Shown one piece after another: positions 6,186 through 23,521 of a stretch of 32,763 nt of DNA. The notes beneath the pieces were generated by a model that made no database searches, was not told where the DNA came from, and saw only the letters and a program-made list of their open reading frames with translations. This DNA comes from a virus (lineage: Duplodnaviria; Caudoviricetes), in the IMG/VR virus record IMGVR_UViG_3300033415_000009, positions 1 to 32,763 of that record; one strand, given 5' to 3'. The translations under genes were made by a program, and so were the position numbers. The number at the start of each line of letters is the position of its first letter. Within the stretch, counting starts at the first letter, position 1.

Positions 6186-6509
6186 ATGTTGATGCGTAAA
6201 CGTGAAGACGATGGCATTCCGTCAATGAAGAAGCCTAGCCGTGACATGAGTGAAGAGAGTGGAATATCTGAGGGCACAAAAGAGCGTGGAGAGGTCACCA
6301 ACGAGCGTGAGGCTGCTGCACAGGATTTCCTTGATGCTATAGCAGACGGGGACGCTAAGGCCCTAGTGGACGCTTTTATTGCCCTAGATATGGCCTGTGG
6401 TGAGCTCGAGGATGAAGGTGAGGAAGAGGAAGAGGGGGAACCTATGGGTGAACCCAAAAAGTCACCAAAGGATCTCGTCAGCATCATACTGGCCAAGAAG
6501 AAAGCGTAA
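6186..6509 (+). CDS. Acidic hypothetical protein
   Basis: 107 aa E/D-rich ORF with an AAAQDFLDAI..GD..AL..A helical motif; starts 2 bp after the previous gene. Confidence 0.7.
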   Translation: MLMRKREDDGIPSMKKPSRDMSEESGISEGTKERGEVTNEREAAAQDFLDAIADGDAKALVDAFIALDMACGELEDEGEEEEEGEPMGEPKKSPKDLVSIILAKKKA

Positions 6510-6577
6510 GCTCTATCTCTATGAAATAGGATTTTGTAGAGATTAGCCGTGTGGAATGTCTAGATCATCGGTGTTGA

Positions 6578-7453
6578 TCAAACGGTATATTTTTTAAAAC
6601 TGGGATCAACGATCAAAGGAACGGCAGACTTCCAGTTCACACGGTGATGCAACCTTTTATTCTTAAATCCCATCTCCCGAATGCTTACAGAGCTCGGGCT
6701 GTAGAGGACAGAATAAAAACTTTTTACATAAGTTCCCAGGTCTTTGTAAATATCAGTCAAGCCCCCTTCATTAGCCTGTGTTTGCACTTGTTCAAGCCTT
6801 ATTCTGGGAACTGTTACAAACAGATATCCACGACTACCCAAATGGATATAAGCGTTTACATCTTCGTTAATTCTGCCCATGAACTTAAAGGGCTTAGCGG
6901 TGTTCATAAAGAATGCGTTCATGGCTTTACGAGAAAACAATCCAGCGGATTCCAGTTTAGCGACATTGCTACCATGGCCACCAATAAAGTCCCCTCCTTG
7001 GCTCATGGCTATACTGTGTGCTTGGCTGTCAATCAAGAATTGAGTCATAGCTAAGAACACTTTATCCAAGTTTTTCAGTCTACGTTGTGAAGTGATGTAT
7101 TGTCTTGAGTTATTAAAGATATTGGAAAAACGTGGGTAATCATCATCAAGCTGTAAAAAATAGGAAATACCTAATTCTTGAGCAACAACAAAATTCCAGT
7201 TGCGAGCATATACAACGCTGTTTGTTCTCGTTAAATTGTCTGCACTATCTGTATAGTCAATTGCTTTTTCTTTATTAAAAACAATAACTTGGTCGCCATA
7301 TAGTTTTTTATATAGATTTTCTTGTTTATCAGTGTCATCTATTAACAGATAGATTTTCCCCGTATAGCCTTGCTTCCTAAGGGCTGAATAGGTTGTTACA
7401 CGTTCAGCTCTGCCATGAGTTAAAATAAAGACAGCAAAAGAATCAGTAAGCAT
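6578..7453 (-). CDS. TAGT/GREB1-like glycosyltransferase (GT-A fold; putative DNA base glycosylation)
   Basis: N-terminal FILTHGRA, then ARN, LQLDDDY (DxD), FMGRINEDV, Q...GG.T..Y and RLHH.V.W. This pattern is typical of phage TET-associated glycosyltransferase-like proteins. Start set at ATG 7453. Confidence 0.7.
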   Translation of the reverse strand: MLTDSFAVFILTHGRAERVTTYSALRKQGYTGKIYLLIDDTDKQENLYKKLYGDQVIVFNKEKAIDYTDSADNLTRTNSVVYARNWNFVVAQELGISYFLQLDDDYPRFSNIFNNSRQYITSQRRLKNLDKVFLAMTQFLIDSQAHSIAMSQGGDFIGGHGSNVAKLESAGLFSRKAMNAFFMNTAKPFKFMGRINEDVNAYIHLGSRGYLFVTVPRIRLEQVQTQANEGGLTDIYKDLGTYVKSFYSVLYSPSSVSIREMGFKNKRLHHRVNWKSAVPLIVDPSFKKYTV

Positions 7454-8297
7454 CTTCTTCCTCATTTTCTTCACTGTTATCTTCTTCGTATATTTCATTT
7501 AAAGCCTGAGAAAGCTTTATGTAGCCATCCCTTATGGCGTGCTTGATATCGATAATAACAAGAGCACTATTCTCCATTAACTCTTGAACATCTTTATCCG
7601 AATGGCAATAATATTCGGCTATATTTTTATAATTAAACACAATGTGTCTATAAGCTGCTGCTATTAAAAAGTCCTTTTCACCTTGAGGTAAACTTTTTGA
7701 TTCTGACTCTATTTGTGCTATAAGCTGCAACGATTTTTCTTTATTGTAAAGTTCACACAATTCTGGTTTTATTTCTTTAGCTGGCCGGTATTGGATTGTT
7801 CCCGTTTTTTGAGAATAAGGGTTATTTGATCCGTCAGTATCGGTGCTAGCATCTTTTTTATTTCCGTTTATTTCATTGTCCATCTGATCATCTGAAGACA
7901 ACTTCGTGTCATCAAACCCAATGACATCCAGTTCAAAATCCTCAAGCCTCAATTCATCGAGTTCAATCTTCAACAGCTCTTCATCCCAACCAGCCTCTAG
8001 TGCTAGCTTGTTGTCTGCGAGTGTATAGGCCCGTCTCTGCGTGTCTGTGAGGTGGGCAAAGGCCACCGTGGGCACTTTATCTAACCCTAGCCTTTGTGCA
8101 GCTAGTAGTCTCCCATGGCCTGCAATAATCGTTTTACTCGCACTGTCTATGAGTATGGGGTTCAGGAATCCAAATTCTTGGATGCTGGCAGCTATTCTGT
8201 CAATCTGTTCACCTGAATGGGTTCTTGCATTGCGTGCGTAAGGGTGCAGTGAGTCAATGGGAAGATATTTGATGGAGTTGGTTAAGTTTTGTTTCAT
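7443..8297 (-). CDS. ParB/Srx-like N-terminal domain fused to a conserved helical C-terminal domain
   Basis: L.PY.RNARTH...QI..IA.SI.EFGF.NPILID....IIAGHGRL.AA..LG and RAY.LADNKL....WD..LL..EL match the phage ParB domain. Confidence 0.88.
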   Translation of the reverse strand: MKQNLTNSIKYLPIDSLHPYARNARTHSGEQIDRIAASIQEFGFLNPILIDSASKTIIAGHGRLLAAQRLGLDKVPTVAFAHLTDTQRRAYTLADNKLALEAGWDEELLKIELDELRLEDFELDVIGFDDTKLSSDDQMDNEINGNKKDASTDTDGSNNPYSQKTGTIQYRPAKEIKPELCELYNKEKSLQLIAQIESESKSLPQGEKDFLIAAAYRHIVFNYKNIAEYYCHSDKDVQELMENSALVIIDIKHAIRDGYIKLSQALNEIYEEDNSEENEEEDAY

Positions 8298-8803
8298 TGT
8301 GTTTCTCTTTTTAGATGATTATTTAAAGCATTGAGGTAAGCATGATGTGCTTCTTCTTGAGTCAAAAATCTGCCTAAGTAAAATCTTTTGCCATTGAGTT
8401 GTATGCTTGCTTGCCACGGCCTATTTATTGGTCTTATGCTTTTTTTCCTTTTAAAACAAGGTTTTCTATAGCATGTCCCCACTAAATGCCCTTTCCTGTG
8501 GCATTCTTTGTTTGATGTATTTTCTCTTCTCGTGCATTCCCTAAGATTTTCTATTCTATTGTCTCCACGATTCCCATTGATGTGGTCAATATCTCCTATA
8601 GGTTCTCTTCTGTACTCAATTATCCAAATGAGTCTGTGGGCTTGGTAATGGATCCCATTGTATCTAACCTTTCGATAACCTTGAGAATTGCATCCTGCAA
8701 GTCGTCCTATTTTAGCTCGTTGAGAAGGTCTTTTTTTCCAATAAAGCCGCCCATCTTCTTTGTCATAATTAAATAATTCTAATATTTGTTTTCTGCTTAG
8801 CAT
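8294..8803 (-). CDS. HNH homing endonuclease (HNH_3 type) with AP2-like C-terminal DNA-binding domain
   Basis: Y.AHRLIW and IDHINGNRGDNRIENLR..T..EN, then W.A.I...GKR.YLG.F.T.EEA..AY. TGATG overlap with the upstream gene. Confidence 0.92.
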   Translation of the reverse strand: MLSRKQILELFNYDKEDGRLYWKKRPSQRAKIGRLAGCNSQGYRKVRYNGIHYQAHRLIWIIEYRREPIGDIDHINGNRGDNRIENLRECTRRENTSNKECHRKGHLVGTCYRKPCFKRKKSIRPINRPWQASIQLNGKRFYLGRFLTQEEAHHAYLNALNNHLKRETQ

Positions 8804-9105
8804 CAAAACACCAGTAGCGTCACCGTCACAGGCCCAGCAGCGTTCAGCCTGAGGCTCGTCTGCGGGTATTTGTTATTGGCCTGCTCATCATAGATAACCG
8901 CCCCCGTGTTGCGTTTGACGACTAGCCAGCCTTGCAGCGCCCTTTCCAGTTTGTGGGGAATGAAGTTCGTGCCAGCTGTTAAATCAATATCTTTCAGTAG
9001 GCTCATGGTGTAAACGAGTGGGCTGATTTGGCTAAACGCCTCGGCTACTGTGTCTTGAACAAGATTCAACTCCTGAATATTTGACGCAATTCTCTTGGGC
9101 TTCAT
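8803..9105 (-). CDS. Small hypothetical protein, probably virion-associated
   Basis: 100 aa with H.L.R...GW.VV and a beta-rich C-terminus ending in VF. GAGGA SD upstream on the minus strand. Confidence 0.6.
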   Translation of the reverse strand: MKPKRIASNIQELNLVQDTVAEAFSQISPLVYTMSLLKDIDLTAGTNFIPHKLERALQGWLVVKRNTGAVIYDEQANNKYPQTSLRLNAAGPVTVTLLVF

Positions 9106-18938: not shown

Positions 18939-19094
18939 ACGTTCAACAATACCGTTTGAGCTTTCTCTTCTTCCGCAATTTGATTAGCTTAAGCTGCTGT
19001 TTACTCACACCTTGGATCTGTCTAAACCAGTAAGCAAAATGCTCTATGCTTTGGCCAAACTCTTTATGAGGTGGTGGCAATTCTCTGTTTTCGC

Positions 19095-19466
19095 TCATGA
19101 CTTCTTTTTAGCTTTCTTAGATTTCTTAGATTTCTCTGGTTTTTCTGGATCAACAAAACTGATCATTTTTCCCGTGTCATCAAATACTTGTAAATACTTA
19201 AAACTTCTTTTTAAATAGCCCATTTTAAAATATTTAAACGGCTTGTTGAGGACTGGCCTAAAAGAATGCCCATTTAAAAATTTCCAAGAATTTACCATGA
19301 GAAAGTCATTTAAACTTTCTAATTTAGAACATTTGAGCAAGGCCAATATTTTATTTTGCATACTTAAAAATTCGTGAAAGGGATCAACACAATTGACATC
19401 CTTTAACGTATTAACTGGATGATTTTCCGCGTAGCCTTCAGCCCAATCGTATTCACTCACAATCAT
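19095..19466 (-). CDS. Hypothetical protein, K-rich C-terminus
   Basis: 123 aa AT-rich ORF overlapping the end of the RepL-like gene by 14 bp, with an AAGGGA SD. Confidence 0.65.
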   Translation of the reverse strand: MIVSEYDWAEGYAENHPVNTLKDVNCVDPFHEFLSMQNKILALLKCSKLESLNDFLMVNSWKFLNGHSFRPVLNKPFKYFKMGYLKRSFKYLQVFDDTGKMISFVDPEKPEKSKKSKKAKKKS

Positions 19467-19923
19467 TCCCTTTTTGTATGTTCTCTATCAGTTCTCTATA
19501 GGCTTTTGCAGAGCCTCTAAAAACACAATTGTGGTTTACGAAATAGACTTGACCACACTTCTTTTTGATCATGTTTTTTTCAATTAACTCTTTAATCCCT
19601 ATGTAGTAAATTCGTTTACTTCCATATTTCTTCTCAAACTGGACTAGGGGAAGATCCACTTCTTTACTGCTTCTTTTGAGCTTGTTTAGTAAATACGCAA
19701 AAACGACTGTAGTTGAAGGCTTACATTTGGCCAGCAGTTCGTAAACTGGTGGATGGATTATGATACCTACACCGTGCATATGTCTCACCGTTTTTATAGT
19801 TGTACACTGTCTTTTTGTGGAATCATTATCATCGTCTCCCCGATTTAATAAATGACTGGCAACGAGCTTTATATGAGAATTTGTCTCATTGTCAAATGGT
19901 GAATTGCCATAGTGGACGGCCAC
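19453..19923 (-). CDS. RepL-like replication/maintenance protein (winged-HTH), copy 1
   Basis: N-terminal NSPF, then VFAYLL..L, Y.GIKEL.EK..I and YFVN...VFRG, matching the RepL family C-terminal signature. GTG start with AGGGG SD. Confidence 0.62.
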   Translation of the reverse strand: MAVHYGNSPFDNETNSHIKLVASHLLNRGDDDNDSTKRQCTTIKTVRHMHGVGIIIHPPVYELLAKCKPSTTVVFAYLLNKLKRSSKEVDLPLVQFEKKYGSKRIYYIGIKELIEKNMIKKKCGQVYFVNHNCVFRGSAKAYRELIENIQKGNDCE

Positions 19924-20142
19924 GCTAAAAGGCCCCTTTGCGGGTCAAGTGTGAAATACTATATACCATAAAGCGGATGATTTGTCTGCATTTTGGTTAC
20001 TACTGCACTGTGAAGAAGAAGTTCACAATTTGGTAACTGAATTTTTGTACCAAACATTTTGTTAATGTTCAAAAATTCACCAAGTCGGAAAAAAATTTGA
20101 TATTTCCCCTATACTCCCGACCGTCCGAAACATCTTGATCAC

Positions 20143-20369
20143 CGGCAAAAACCAACAGCCAACAGCCAACAGCCAACAGCCAACAGCCTTTACCTCTTTT
20201 AAGACCCCAACACACAGCCCAGCTAAGACTCAAAGAGATCTGGATCACTTCTCCTGTCTAGGACTGGGCCAGCCTACGGCTGTCCTCAGCCCACACACAA
20301 TTCAAAAAGAATGGAAAAAAGAAGAAGGAATACAGAACAGCCGAACAGCCAAAAACTAATACAGGGTCT
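20143..20369 (+). repeat. Inverted repeat, left arm (227 bp), with (AACAGCC)x5
   Basis: Reverse complement of 21218-21429 apart from heptamer copy number and a few changes in A-rich runs. Confidence 0.97.
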
Positions 20370-20454
20370 TGAGTGGGAGCATTGTACCTATCAGCACGGG
20401 TAATTCTCACGCAAAAGGGGTAAATTTAAACGAAAGCCCTTTGGAGGTATTCTC

Positions 20455-21126
20455 ATGACTCTCGCATCTTCCCTTGTCACACAGGCCCGTTTGCGGGCTG
20501 ACCAAGTGAATTCCCAGTTTGTGACTGACGCTGAGGCCCTCGGTTATCTCAGCTTGGGCTACCAAAACTTTTACGATCTCGTGACACAGTCTAACAATAC
20601 CTACTATGTCAGCCAGTTAGACATCACCCTAATCCCCAATGTGCAAGATTACGCCCTTCCAGCAAACTTTTATAAGCTCTTGGGCATGGATCTCGTGAAC
20701 GCAATAGGCGCCCCTGTTACACTGCGTCCCTTTCAGTGGAATGAGCGGAATCGCTACAAATATGCAGGCCTGACAACCATGGCTGGGCCTGTGTATCGGT
20801 ACAATCTGCTGGGCTCGAATGTCAGGTTTACCCCTATGCCGGGTAGTGGTGTGGTGAAGGTGTACTTCACGCCTCGGGCCGTGTTGCCCACTCTGTTGAC
20901 ATCTGAAATAGACACCATGGGGTTCGACGAGTATTTGATTGTGAGCGTGGCGTTGAAGATGTTGGCAAAGGAGGAGAGTGACACGACCTTGATTCAGGCG
21001 GAGTTGCAACGGCAGACGGAGAGGGTGCAAACGATGCTAGCTGACCAAGATTCCAGCTTTCCCAAGGTCGTGGTGGATGTGGACACCCTCAATGACAATC
21101 TCTATTTGCCGACGTTTTTACGTTAA
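20455..21126 (+). CDS. Head-tail adaptor / tail tubular protein A-like
   Basis: 223 aa with MT...L....R.RAD..NS.FVTD.E...YL, Y.LP..FYKL.G.D, Y...G..VRF.P.P and .DEYLI..VA.K.L.KEESD. GGAGG SD. Confidence 0.78.
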   Translation: MTLASSLVTQARLRADQVNSQFVTDAEALGYLSLGYQNFYDLVTQSNNTYYVSQLDITLIPNVQDYALPANFYKLLGMDLVNAIGAPVTLRPFQWNERNRYKYAGLTTMAGPVYRYNLLGSNVRFTPMPGSGVVKVYFTPRAVLPTLLTSEIDTMGFDEYLIVSVALKMLAKEESDTTLIQAELQRQTERVQTMLADQDSSFPKVVVDVDTLNDNLYLPTFLR

Positions 21127-21217
21127 CCAGAAAACCGTGTTCTTGATTAATATTAATAAAATGGGGAGGCCCTCAAGCGGGGCTCAATGGTTTAGGTCCC
21201 AAACTGCCTTTCCCCCT

Positions 21218-21429
21218 AGACCCTGTATTAGTTTTGGCTGTTCGGCTGTTCTGTATTCCTTCTTCTTTTCTATTTCTTTTTGAATTGTGTGTGGGCTGAG
21301 GACAGCCGTAGGCTGGCCCAGTCCTAGACAGGAGAAGTGATCCAGATCTCTTTGAGTCTTAGCTGGGCTGTGTGTTGGGGTCTTAAAAGAGGTAAAGGCT
21401 GTTGGCTGTTTGGCTGTTGGTTTTTGCCG
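21218..21429 (-). repeat. Inverted repeat, right arm (212 bp), with three GGCTGTT copies
   Basis: Reverse complement of 20143-20369. Confidence 0.97.
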
Positions 21430-21655
21430 TTGGTTTTGTGAGTGCGCTACAGCTCGATCTTAAATACAATAGAAAGAGATATCAAATTCCTTAATATTAT
21501 CAACCCCCCTAATGATACCAAATTGATATTCTTAATGCCAGTCTACTGATATTAGGGAAAATTGAAAGTTATATATTGCATTAAGTATTTGCTTATATTT
21601 TATATCATGATATTTAGGATATATTGTAAACGCTAAAACGAGGTGCCATATAGCA

Positions 21656-22261
21656 ATGGAAAATAGTTTGAAATGTGAAAACGAAATCAAAAAAGCTGGC
21701 AAGCCACGGGGAATAAAGAGATTTCACTCTAACCCTTTTATCGAGTTTAAGGGGGTGCAGTTCAAAAAGACAAAGATCAATTATTTTAAAGTCCTTACAA
21801 ATAAACCAGTTACAGTTGGAGACGAGAAAATAGGTAATAAACTTTTTGCGAAAGTTGAACATGAGGTCAGCGGTGAACAGTTTGTTAAAATCTATGCACG
21901 CTATGCTAGCATTTGGTTTGATCTGAGTCCCGCAGCATTAAAGATTTTTGGACTATTCTATTCAATGATTTTATGCTCCCCAGCGGAGATGACCTATTTT
22001 TACCTGTCTAACTCTGATCCGATTTTAAACCGTTACATCAAAACGCCCACAACCTTTCACAAAGCAATCAATGAATTGATTAAAAACCAAATCATTGCAC
22101 GGCATTTTTCAGAAGGCTGGTACTGGCTAAATCCATTTGTTATGGGGAGAGGGGATCAGCTAAAAATAATCACCGAATTGAAAATGAAAAACAACAAGGC
22201 TTCACATGCGGAAGTTGGGCAATTTTTAGATAAATCAATACCTGAAAAAGTTAAATTCTAA
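21656..22261 (+). CDS. RepL/RepA-like plasmid replication protein (winged-HTH), copy 2
   Basis: NPF, EQFVKIY, FDLS.AA.KIF, TFHKAINELI....IA and G.YWLNP....GD match the RepL-type pattern. GAGGTG SD. Confidence 0.75.
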   Translation: MENSLKCENEIKKAGKPRGIKRFHSNPFIEFKGVQFKKTKINYFKVLTNKPVTVGDEKIGNKLFAKVEHEVSGEQFVKIYARYASIWFDLSPAALKIFGLFYSMILCSPAEMTYFYLSNSDPILNRYIKTPTTFHKAINELIKNQIIARHFSEGWYWLNPFVMGRGDQLKIITELKMKNNKASHAEVGQFLDKSIPEKVKF

Positions 22262-22262
22262 C

Positions 22263-22646
22263 CTAACTCTCCACTTGCACAGTTAATCTCTCATCCCATT
22301 TCTGCTTACCAATAAACTGCACCGCCAATTCAAAGCCATGAACTAGAAACTTCCGCTTGTAAGCGGGGTGCCCTTTGACGGCCATAGTCTCAGCAAAATG
22401 AATAAACTCCTCTTTCACATAGTCGTAGGGATTCACAGTGGATTGGTAGTAGTGATAGGGTTCTTGATCTCCGTATGTTTCTGTTGTCACGTTTTTGTCA
22501 TATGTTTTTAACGTTAGCCAAAACACGGCTAACTCTCGAGGGCCCAGTTGGTAAGCATATTCTGCTTTTTTTGCTAGTGTGAGTGGACTTGGTTTATCCT
22601 GTAGGCTGAGTTTGTTCATTGATTTCAGTTCACTCCAAAAGGTCAT
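22263..22646 (-). CDS. Hypothetical protein
   Basis: 127 aa ORF converging on the RepL-like gene with stops 1 bp apart; fills otherwise empty space. Confidence 0.6.
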   Translation of the reverse strand: MTFWSELKSMNKLSLQDKPSPLTLAKKAEYAYQLGPRELAVFWLTLKTYDKNVTTETYGDQEPYHYYQSTVNPYDYVKEEFIHFAETMAVKGHPAYKRKFLVHGFELAVQFIGKQKWDERLTVQVES

Positions 22647-22952: not shown

Positions 22953-23521
22953 ATTTCGAATACCCCCAGTTTGATGTAGCCCACCAGTTGGATCCCACTG
23001 TTCGTCCCTTTGTCATATTTGACACTGCTGGACAGGGAGACAAGGCTTTTGTCTGCGCCACATGGGCCAATTCTTACCAAGGCAAGTTCGTGGGCCAGTT
23101 GTCTAAGTACGAATACAAGCGTTGCCAGTACACGCTCATTGAGGCTGTGCTTGCGTTTCCCACCACTCAGGTATTCGTTGTGCGGTCTGCCGAAGAACCC
23201 ACCTCAGTGTTGGCTTTTGCCGCACTGGATGAGAAGCGCAAAGTGCTTCACTACATGTACTGTAAATTTGAGTACAGGAAGAACGCCTTGTGCCAAAACC
23301 TTGTGTTAGGCAGAGGGCTTAGATACCTCTCTATGTCCCCGGGCTATCGTTTGCCCCAATGGGCCAGCCACCTCTATTTCCACCCCTACATACTCGATGA
23401 GGTCTTCATACATTATGGCAGTGAGCAACAAAAGCGTCAGCACCAGCAGCACCAGCAGCACCAGCAACAACAACAACAGCAACAACAGCCATCCGGAGTT
23501 AGCAGTTCCTCGGAAAATTGA
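22949..23521 (+). CDS. GNAT-fold acetyltransferase-like protein (degenerate)
   Basis: D..FV..TW..SY, V.V......V.AFA and LHY.Y.K.EYRK.ALC..L resemble GNAT motif A. Poly-Q tail. Confidence 0.5.
   Translation: MNFEYPQFDVAHQLDPTVRPFVIFDTAGQGDKAFVCATWANSYQGKFVGQLSKYEYKRCQYTLIEAVLAFPTTQVFVVRSAEEPTSVLAFAALDEKRKVLHYMYCKFEYRKNALCQNLVLGRGLRYLSMSPGYRLPQWASHLYFHPYILDEVFIHYGSEQQKRQHQQHQQHQQQQQQQQQPSGVSSSSEN

Follow-up and report, generated by a model that had tools for sequence, protein, structure and literature searches.

Small plasmids often encode RepL proteins, and so do phages such as crAssphage, but the way in which these proteins start replication is poorly studied. RepL (PF05732) is reported as the initiator of pSN2-family plasmids, for which the available text of the source gives at least two incompatibility groups (PMC5703833). 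In the plasmids pIGRK and pIGMS31, an ssi-like palindrome is followed by iterons, inverted repeats and the rep gene, and the Rep protein is described to bind the origin and to repress its own gene (PMC6854812; bioRxiv 2022.12.05.519187; accessible sections). According to the accessible parts of the crAssphage papers, Carjivirus communis possesses two PF05732 genes near strand switches (PMC4111155), which are 24.6% identical and were proposed to serve two origins (PMC10983915, the methods of which name PF01719 as profile) and were described as ancient paralogues (PMC7551546). The locus analyzed here is situated in a 32,763-bp contig of a tailed phage (IMG/VR record IMGVR_UViG_3300033415_000009; the whole contig is called the window). 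Two RepL-family genes, encoding Rep1 and Rep2, flank a head-tail adaptor gene, and each is preceded by a Rep-specific gap and by one of two inverted copies of a shared sequence, the arm. The durable finding is an exchangeable cassette with a constant arm, and the symmetry of the locus matters less. The cassette exists with three Rep alleles (Rep1, Rep2 and Rep3, the last from close relatives); it occupies two positions within this phage group and recurs in a myovirus that is not related to it. The locus forms a natural control set, with one constant arm and three very different Rep-plus-gap alleles common to a podovirus-like phage and a myovirus, and makes the parts carrying specificity versus priming directly testable.

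The window phage is tailed, like crAssphage, and like it carries two RepL-family genes that are only distantly related to each other. In crAssphage these are the first and the last gene of a positive-strand gene block, whereas in the window they stand back to back, 1.7 kb apart. No shared arm is described in the available portions of the crAssphage papers; in the window, a shared arm of about 220 bp stands before each repL and the alleles are exchanged between strains. The original prediction, made from the letters of the window, knew of no described phage with this layout. The layout itself was indeed not found in the literature (no paper on back-to-back RepL genes around a virion gene or on a shared arm, most subscription journals being outside the coverage), but the presence of two divergent RepL genes in one phage had been published for crAssphage. 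The cassette resembles pHW126-like modules and the pSN2 family in its small, putative winged-helix initiator without typical rolling-circle motifs, in the apparent order of palindrome, candidate binding repeats and rep, possibly in inverted repeats before the gene (clear only for Rep3) and in the existence of several incompatibility types. It differs from them in the lack of a 20-bp iteron array, in an arm without DNA similarity, in its residence in tailed phages of 33-40 kb rather than plasmids of 1-4 kb, and in the presence of two cassettes per genome in the window. The cassette probably works like pHW126-type modules without being a member of them, as it has no 20-bp iterons and its arm finds no match in plasmids. 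Over 77-84% of its length, Rep2 shares 28-30% identity with the initiators of pBI143 and Col(MG828); the upstream regions of these plasmids do not match the arm.

Rep1 and Rep2 are both placed by their sequences in the RepL family, on distant branches. Rep1 matches Pfam PF05732 barely above the cut-off (E 3.5e-4, 20.5 bits against 20.3), Rep3 scores 15.6 against the same family (cut-off 20.3) and Rep2 has no Pfam match. In tblastn, Rep2 matched 157 plasmid records, the top rows being 27-31% identical and mostly annotated as RepL, with pBI143 and Col(MG828) among them. The annotated genes nearest to it are repL genes carried by plasmids of 2-4 kb. Rep1 gave no tblastn match in plasmids, and Rep2, Rep3 and the RepL of locus L019 gave no match in annotated phages. 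A genome scan with an alignment of Rep1 and Rep3 returned only distant RepL genes. Two profiles were made without Rep1-type sequences, the second from 11 RepL proteins of plasmids, genomes and phages. The profile searches gave 1e-38 and 1e-25 for Rep2, for which the first profile is not independent since it derives from matches to the family of Rep2 itself, 3.5e-9 and 1.9e-6 for Rep1, and 7e-9 and 6e-6 for Rep3. None of three control open reading frames (ORFs) was detected by the same profiles. As predicted, the two proteins share only family motifs: a direct BLASTP comparison is not significant (E 3.4), yet their family profiles align (hhalign probability 88.5%, E 2.7e-6). Rep1 and Rep2 are not a recent duplication, because they are beyond the reach of BLASTP and far apart in the RepL tree, which has long branches and was used only to place Rep1 and Rep3 far from Rep2. 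Rep3 is only 32-36% identical to Rep1.

In the Atlas, both proteins were found with RepL clusters at template modelling (TM) scores of 0.55-0.65; the nearest clusters of Rep1, compared structurally through its Atlas model only, are mostly viral. The AlphaFold2 model of Rep2 has a mean predicted local distance difference test score (pLDDT) of 77.6 and a confident helix-helix-strand-helix-helix-hairpin core, which is winged-helix-like. An earlier model from 10 sequences (pLDDT 44) was discarded. The Foldseek comparison proposed along with the prediction was run on the Rep2 model; the top rows are winged-helix proteins, all weak and none reaching E 0.001. No solved structure of a RepL relative was found by sequence search. 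Some of the comparisons used an in-frame fragment of Rep1 (residues 30-156). The predicted RepL likeness is borne out by plasmid RepL homology (Rep2), profiles and Atlas clusters, with a borderline Pfam match for Rep1.

Two [arm + gap + repL] cassettes were found in the window, as had been predicted, and the predicted geometry was reproduced exactly in all four distances and three ORFs: gaps of 219 and 226 bp, and 446 bp (Rep1 side) and 438 bp (Rep2 side) from the inner edge of the arm to the Rep start. The predicted gap of about 220 bp holds in the window and fails as a constant of the element, the gap of the relative L001 being about 179 bp. The two arms are 95.5% identical over 223 bases (343 bits, E 3e-95; best of 20 window shuffles, 35.6 bits) and contain a perfect core of 137 bp (20175-20311 and 21274-21410). 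They differ chiefly in the count of 7-bp AACAGCC units at the Rep-facing end. Among aligned bases, 210 of 212 are identical between the two arms and 195 of 203 between each of them and the L001 arm, and the window arms have all substitutions relative to L001 in common. As they are closer to each other than to L001, the window arms must have undergone duplication or homogenisation recently, even though their Reps have no sequence-level relationship. The predicted tie of the arm to Rep genes was also seen elsewhere, all five arm copies found (two in the window and one each in L001, L014 and the myovirus G002) being upstream of a RepL gene; L001 and L014 are near-identical strains. The G002 arm is homologous to the window arms (core score 31, reached by 0 of 1,000 shuffles, the best of which scored 29).

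The arm contains a hairpin whose distance to the Rep start is 356, 350, 301 and 330 bp in the four cassette types. Its core has an invariant loop and three adjacent stem pairs changed on both sides between the window and G002. These compensatory changes are only suggestive of a stem conserved by covariation, since they come from one independent comparison. Three-base loops of this kind are unusually stable in single-stranded DNA. Folding of the whole arms is weakly above shuffles (z -1.6 and -2.0). The gap and the Rep appear to co-vary, because the Rep2 gap aligns with the gap of G002 (score 48, reached by 0 of 200 shuffles), the Rep of which is 59% identical to Rep2, and the other five of the six pairs among the Rep1, Rep2, Rep3 and G002 gaps show no alignment beyond shuffles. 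A 14-bp inverted repeat is situated just before the start of Rep3, and only inverted pairs of 8-10 bp were found before Rep1, Rep2 and the G002 Rep. Tandem repeats in the arm are limited to its 7-bp units. In viral contigs, a first exact arm pattern found none (L001 differs by one base), a shorter exact pattern one and a degenerate hairpin pattern one. A metagenome scan with the arm pattern gave three loci, two of them from the window's own record.

These observations are best explained if each unit of conserved arm, Rep-specific gap and repL is a plasmid-type replication-origin cassette, in which RepL binds its own gap and the arm gives a common single-strand signal; we regard this as the probable reading. 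It follows the module order of pIGRK and pIGMS31, namely palindrome, binding repeats and rep. Each RepL would bind short repeats in its own gap, regulating its own gene and opening the origin. The shared arm would serve as a signal whichever allele is present, most likely in the form of a hairpin for single-strand priming, comparable to the ssi of pHW126-type modules. As the arm is common and the gap and gene change together, recombination within the arm would exchange initiator specificity. The head-to-head symmetry would then be a by-product and not a switch. A bolder version, which we hold to be rather unlikely, takes the arm as a socket for swapping initiator-plus-operator alleles, possibly by RepL nicking. 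Two or three mutually compatible RepL replicons per genome would escape incompatibility with resident relatives, and the cassette could drag along an essential virion gene, the window being a snapshot of this process.

Several points weigh against an origin cassette. Origin function, and with it replication from the cassettes, is something we infer from sequence, as are the priming role and the route of rearrangement. The window contig is probably incomplete, since its relative G001, at 20.2 kb, is rated 46% complete and a full size of about 44 kb is implied; it could therefore encode another initiator. Family scans of 38 of the 101 listed ORFs of the window returned no polymerase, primase, helicase, integrase, transposase or ParA. 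G002, an estimated 91% complete genome of 40 kb, speaks for the origin reading: it has one such cassette, and no recognisable polymerase, primase or helicase was found in 53 of 55 called ORFs (PHROGs) or in 13 rescanned with Pfam. On the other side, one of its ORFs (532 aa) is unassigned and another (154 aa) matches a winged helix weakly. No RepL was found in eight partial records of distant relatives or in the 20 kb of G001; these phages may do without the cassette, or it may be located in DNA that the records do not cover. The four gaps contain no direct repeat of 12 bp or longer, so four 20-bp iterons of pHW126 type are absent. The arm gave no meaningful match in plasmid and phage collections by blastn (three short matches at chance level), and RepL plasmids and the likely RepL phage-plasmid L019 have no arm. 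The covariation of the hairpin is a single independent comparison, window against G002. Finally, the cassettes are embedded among late genes, and in L001, the window and G002 a structural gene follows them immediately; this placement fits a promoter role too.

Table. Features of the RepL locus and related sites in the window
Feature	Position	Strand	Remarks
Rep1, RepL-family	19453..19923	-	156 aa, GTG start
Rep1-specific gap	19924..20142	-	219 bp; putative promoter/operator and Rep-binding region
Left arm	20143..20369	-	exact-match block; five AACAGCC units on the side facing Rep1; conserved core; hairpin (GTA loop) near 20279
Adaptor leader	20370..20454	+	ribosome-binding site; moves with adaptor; 81 of 84 bases equal to L001 leader
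SU10-type head-tail adaptor gene	20455..21126	+	223 aa; Pfam SU10_adaptor PF24175, E 8e-11
Spacer, adaptor stop to right arm	21127..21217	none	small stem-loops
Right arm, inverted copy	21218..21429	+	exact-match block; hairpin near 21306
Rep2-specific gap	21430..21655	+	226 bp; AT-rich, 30% GC, short repeated words
Rep2, RepL-family	21656..22261	+	201 aa
123-aa ORF behind Rep1	19095..19466	-	variable cargo; no family match
51-aa ORF, left cassette edge	18943..19098	-	no family match; joint to 22289 starts at 19088
127-aa ORF, right cassette boundary	22263..22646	-	phage backbone; 57% identical homologue at same place in G001, no Rep beside G001 copy
Slot after capsid block, adaptor missing	6503..8806	-	glycosyltransferase, ParB-N and HNH genes

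The relatives of the window were compared to understand the origin of the arrangement. L001 and L014 are about 95% identical to the window in DNA, near-identical to each other and 100% identical in the adaptor protein. Their order is capsid block, Rep3 (-), gap, one arm, adaptor and ParB-methyltransferase (-). In the contigs of L001, L014 and the metagenome run X3, the series Rep-arm-adaptor follows the capsid block and no second arm is present. X3 is a freshwater run from a different study. One of its contigs (1,756 bp) joins a 110-aa gene to the arm across 1,397 other bases, and an X3 record of the same length and depth, carrying Rep1 plus arm, is taken to be the same contig. On treating the two records as one, Rep1-arm-adaptor appears to sit as a unit in the ancestral slot in X3. 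The X3 adaptor contig continues into a ParB-N piece and a 100-aa gene, with no second arm. Rep3 was found in X3 as well, and so was a third contig with an arm, the DNA upstream of which is unmatched; all have a depth of about 10. In G001 (adaptor 78%), the adaptor is situated before the tail genes and no arm is near it. Some 0.5 kb upstream, behind an unrelated 5'-open ORF, a relic of the C-terminus of Rep2 is preserved (L026 258-344, 69% over 29 aa), suggesting an overwritten cassette. By eye, the 5'-open ORF with which G001 begins resembled RepL; it was not counted, as no profile detects it. The eight distant relatives all keep the adaptor in the morphogenesis block, and no arm was found in these partial records. 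A capsid gene is upstream of it in seven, and the eighth locus stops short of the capsid gene. The myovirus G002, unrelated to the window phage, has one arm, gap and Rep2-type cassette between head genes. A search with the terminase in viral contigs found no relative, so the second slot gained no further view in this way.

The adaptor position in the window is derived, because the relatives keep the gene in the morphogenesis block after capsid genes. Its predicted displacement from the morphogenesis operon is thus upheld by L001, L014 and seven of eight distant relatives. The adaptor is likely to have moved together with the left (Rep1) cassette to sit beside the Rep2 cassette. In the simplest history, the Rep1-arm-adaptor block would have left the slot after the capsid genes and landed against the Rep2 cassette; RepL activity or ordinary recombination may have moved it, and both slots exchange unrelated genes too. 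The locus would thus be a case of a virion gene changing place in company with an origin-like cassette. Only the strain type of the window showed the symmetric form, which looks like the rearrangement of one strain. The idea that the head-to-head symmetry is a designed system does not fit its absence in L001, L014 and X3 or the adaptor of G001 without an arm nearby.

Two further runs were used for assembly support. X1 may be the window's own source and is not independent; X1 and X2 have year and habitat label in common and may be one campaign. In X1, mismatch-free contigs at depths of 27-39 bridge arm and adaptor (20325-21029), adaptor and right arm (21000-21261), and arm and Rep2 (21335-22338). 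Another contig (depth 41.9) reads through the ancestral slot and contains neither the adaptor nor a Rep gene there. In X2, the window-type adaptor end has a depth of 66 and the adaptor-to-ParB form a depth of 166. Among the contigs listed, none spans the whole cassette, and none reaches through the 137-bp core into unique DNA at either end; how the adaptor is oriented towards Rep1 and Rep2 therefore depends on the original assembly. The depth over the Rep genes in X1 exceeds that of the flanks and tracks AT content (r = -0.92 against GC in eight pieces, some GC values being from approximate coordinates). Extra copies of the Rep genes were rejected as its cause, the excess being mostly GC bias. 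An opposite-strand joint in X1 connects 19088 to 22289 at a depth of 5.7, near the 6.8 of an L014-type strain; alternatively, this joint may come from a minority of molecules in which the whole cassette is inverted. In X2, Rep1 variants were found at depths of 160-177, near the 155-166 of the L014-type strain. From depth and not contiguity, this strain would carry Rep3 by the adaptor and Rep1 beside the 127-aa ORF. Two cassettes per genome may therefore be common in this phage group. An X2 contig has 525 other bases in place of part of the 123-aa ORF. A further X2 contig (depth 91) contains a divergent arm variant with several indels (window 21258-21345). Between the Rep3 gap and the adaptor, a contig of run X8 has 198 other bases where the arm core would be (L014 1092-1249).

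The joining of co-occurring strains at the repeated arm was considered as the source of the symmetry. X1 and X2 each hold at least two strains having these modules, and both the lack of a spanning contig and the possible identity of X1 with the source of the window fit such an assembly chimera. The three bridged junctions without mismatches, the dominant X1 strain lacking the adaptor at the ancestral slot, the window-type adaptor end in X2 as well and the depth differences following GC content in X1 make it very unlikely. A flip-flop device as in the yeast 2-micron plasmid, where two near-identical inverted repeats separate unique DNA, had also been proposed. Here it would invert the adaptor or redirect forks between two origins. 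The window arms are indeed more alike than either is to L001, and the phage encodes a Sak4-like annealing protein, with which occasional inversion through the 137-bp core is plausible. However, no site-specific recombinase was found among the 38 scanned ORFs of the incomplete window, less than 1 kb separates the arms and contains no candidate origin, and the layout is not conserved in relatives. Such a device is most improbable.

The cassettes may instead be selfish mobile units, in which RepL nicks the arm and mobilises the cassette with or without a neighbour gene, and a composite of two would have captured the essential adaptor. Rolling-circle transposons of the IS91/ISCR type can mobilise a neighbouring gene. 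Position and orientation of the cassette vary in close relatives and it also occurs in the unrelated myovirus, the adaptor moved with its leader and arm, and G001 retains the Rep2 relic. Nicking is reported for the distantly related RepM in the accessible part of bioRxiv 2022.12.05.519187. The scanned window ORFs, however, have no transposase or HUH family match, and the adaptor-between-arms form is found only in the window's strain type. Two variable slots also exchange unrelated cargo of DNA-modification type among the window (6578-8806, glycosyltransferase, ParB-N and HNH), L014 (2034-3566, ParB-N fused to a methyltransferase-like region) and G001 (L026 11884-13538, ParB-N and ATPase/acetyltransferase); the G001 slot matching the window cassette site holds DNA-modification genes too. 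Ordinary modular recombination thus explains the mobility, and mobile units are quite unlikely. The predicted composite element with a captured gene found no transposase family match for the flanking genes or any of the 38 ORFs, so a classical composite transposon, like the 2-micron analogy, lacks its enzyme. The RepL-like proteins could also be transcription regulators or superinfection-immunity proteins, with the arm as promoter or regulatory RNA of the adjacent structural gene. The arm stands directly before a structural gene, with a divergent Rep, in L001, L014, X3, the left unit of the window and G002; operator and protein co-vary as in immunity regions; and the fold weakly resembles winged-helix regulators. 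The right arm of the window, however, faces the end of the adaptor gene rather than the beginning of a gene, the structural genes concerned are present without the arm in distant relatives, and the closest annotated homologues are plasmid initiators. A promoter scan was at chance (7 found, 8.2 expected) and Rfam gave five matches at E <= 10, all far below the gathering scores and thus none above threshold. A regulatory role is decidedly unlikely, and plasmid-type origin cassettes are preferred.

The remaining part of the window contains P22/SU10-like portal, capsid, terminase and adaptor genes, with Sak4, SSB and VRR-NUC genes at its right end. The phage-plasmid nature suggested in the original prediction agrees with the presence of virion genes together with two RepL genes. 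ParA was not found among the 38 ORFs of the incomplete window, so the lifestyle is unproven, and ParB-N sits with DNA-modification genes. The phage record G006 (30.7 kb, with terminal repeats; L019 2667-5192) contains ParA with a small partner gene, and one RepL gene preceded by DNA rich in hairpins. It is likely a RepL phage-plasmid, and the arm was not matched in it. In L019, L022, L024 and L025, a short conserved motif was seen by eye about 130-170 bp upstream of repL; the phage cassettes do not have it. For the spacer that separates the adaptor stop from the right arm, the folding energy is about -20 kcal/mol whichever strand is taken; a consensus terminator scan did not pick it up. The 100-aa gene (window 8803-9105; L026 1673-1972) is on the opposite strand in the window, L014 and G001 and follows the adaptor on the same strand in seven of the eight distant relatives (L003-L007, L009 and L029 among the loci), which indicates a local inversion in the morphogenesis block. 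A tandem 9-bp coding repeat (1475-1519) is present in a 73-aa ORF before the portal; it shares a word with the arm, which was taken as coincidence as the repeat is inside a coding frame. A glutamine-rich repeat in overlapping frames (23397-23521) is situated before the terminase.

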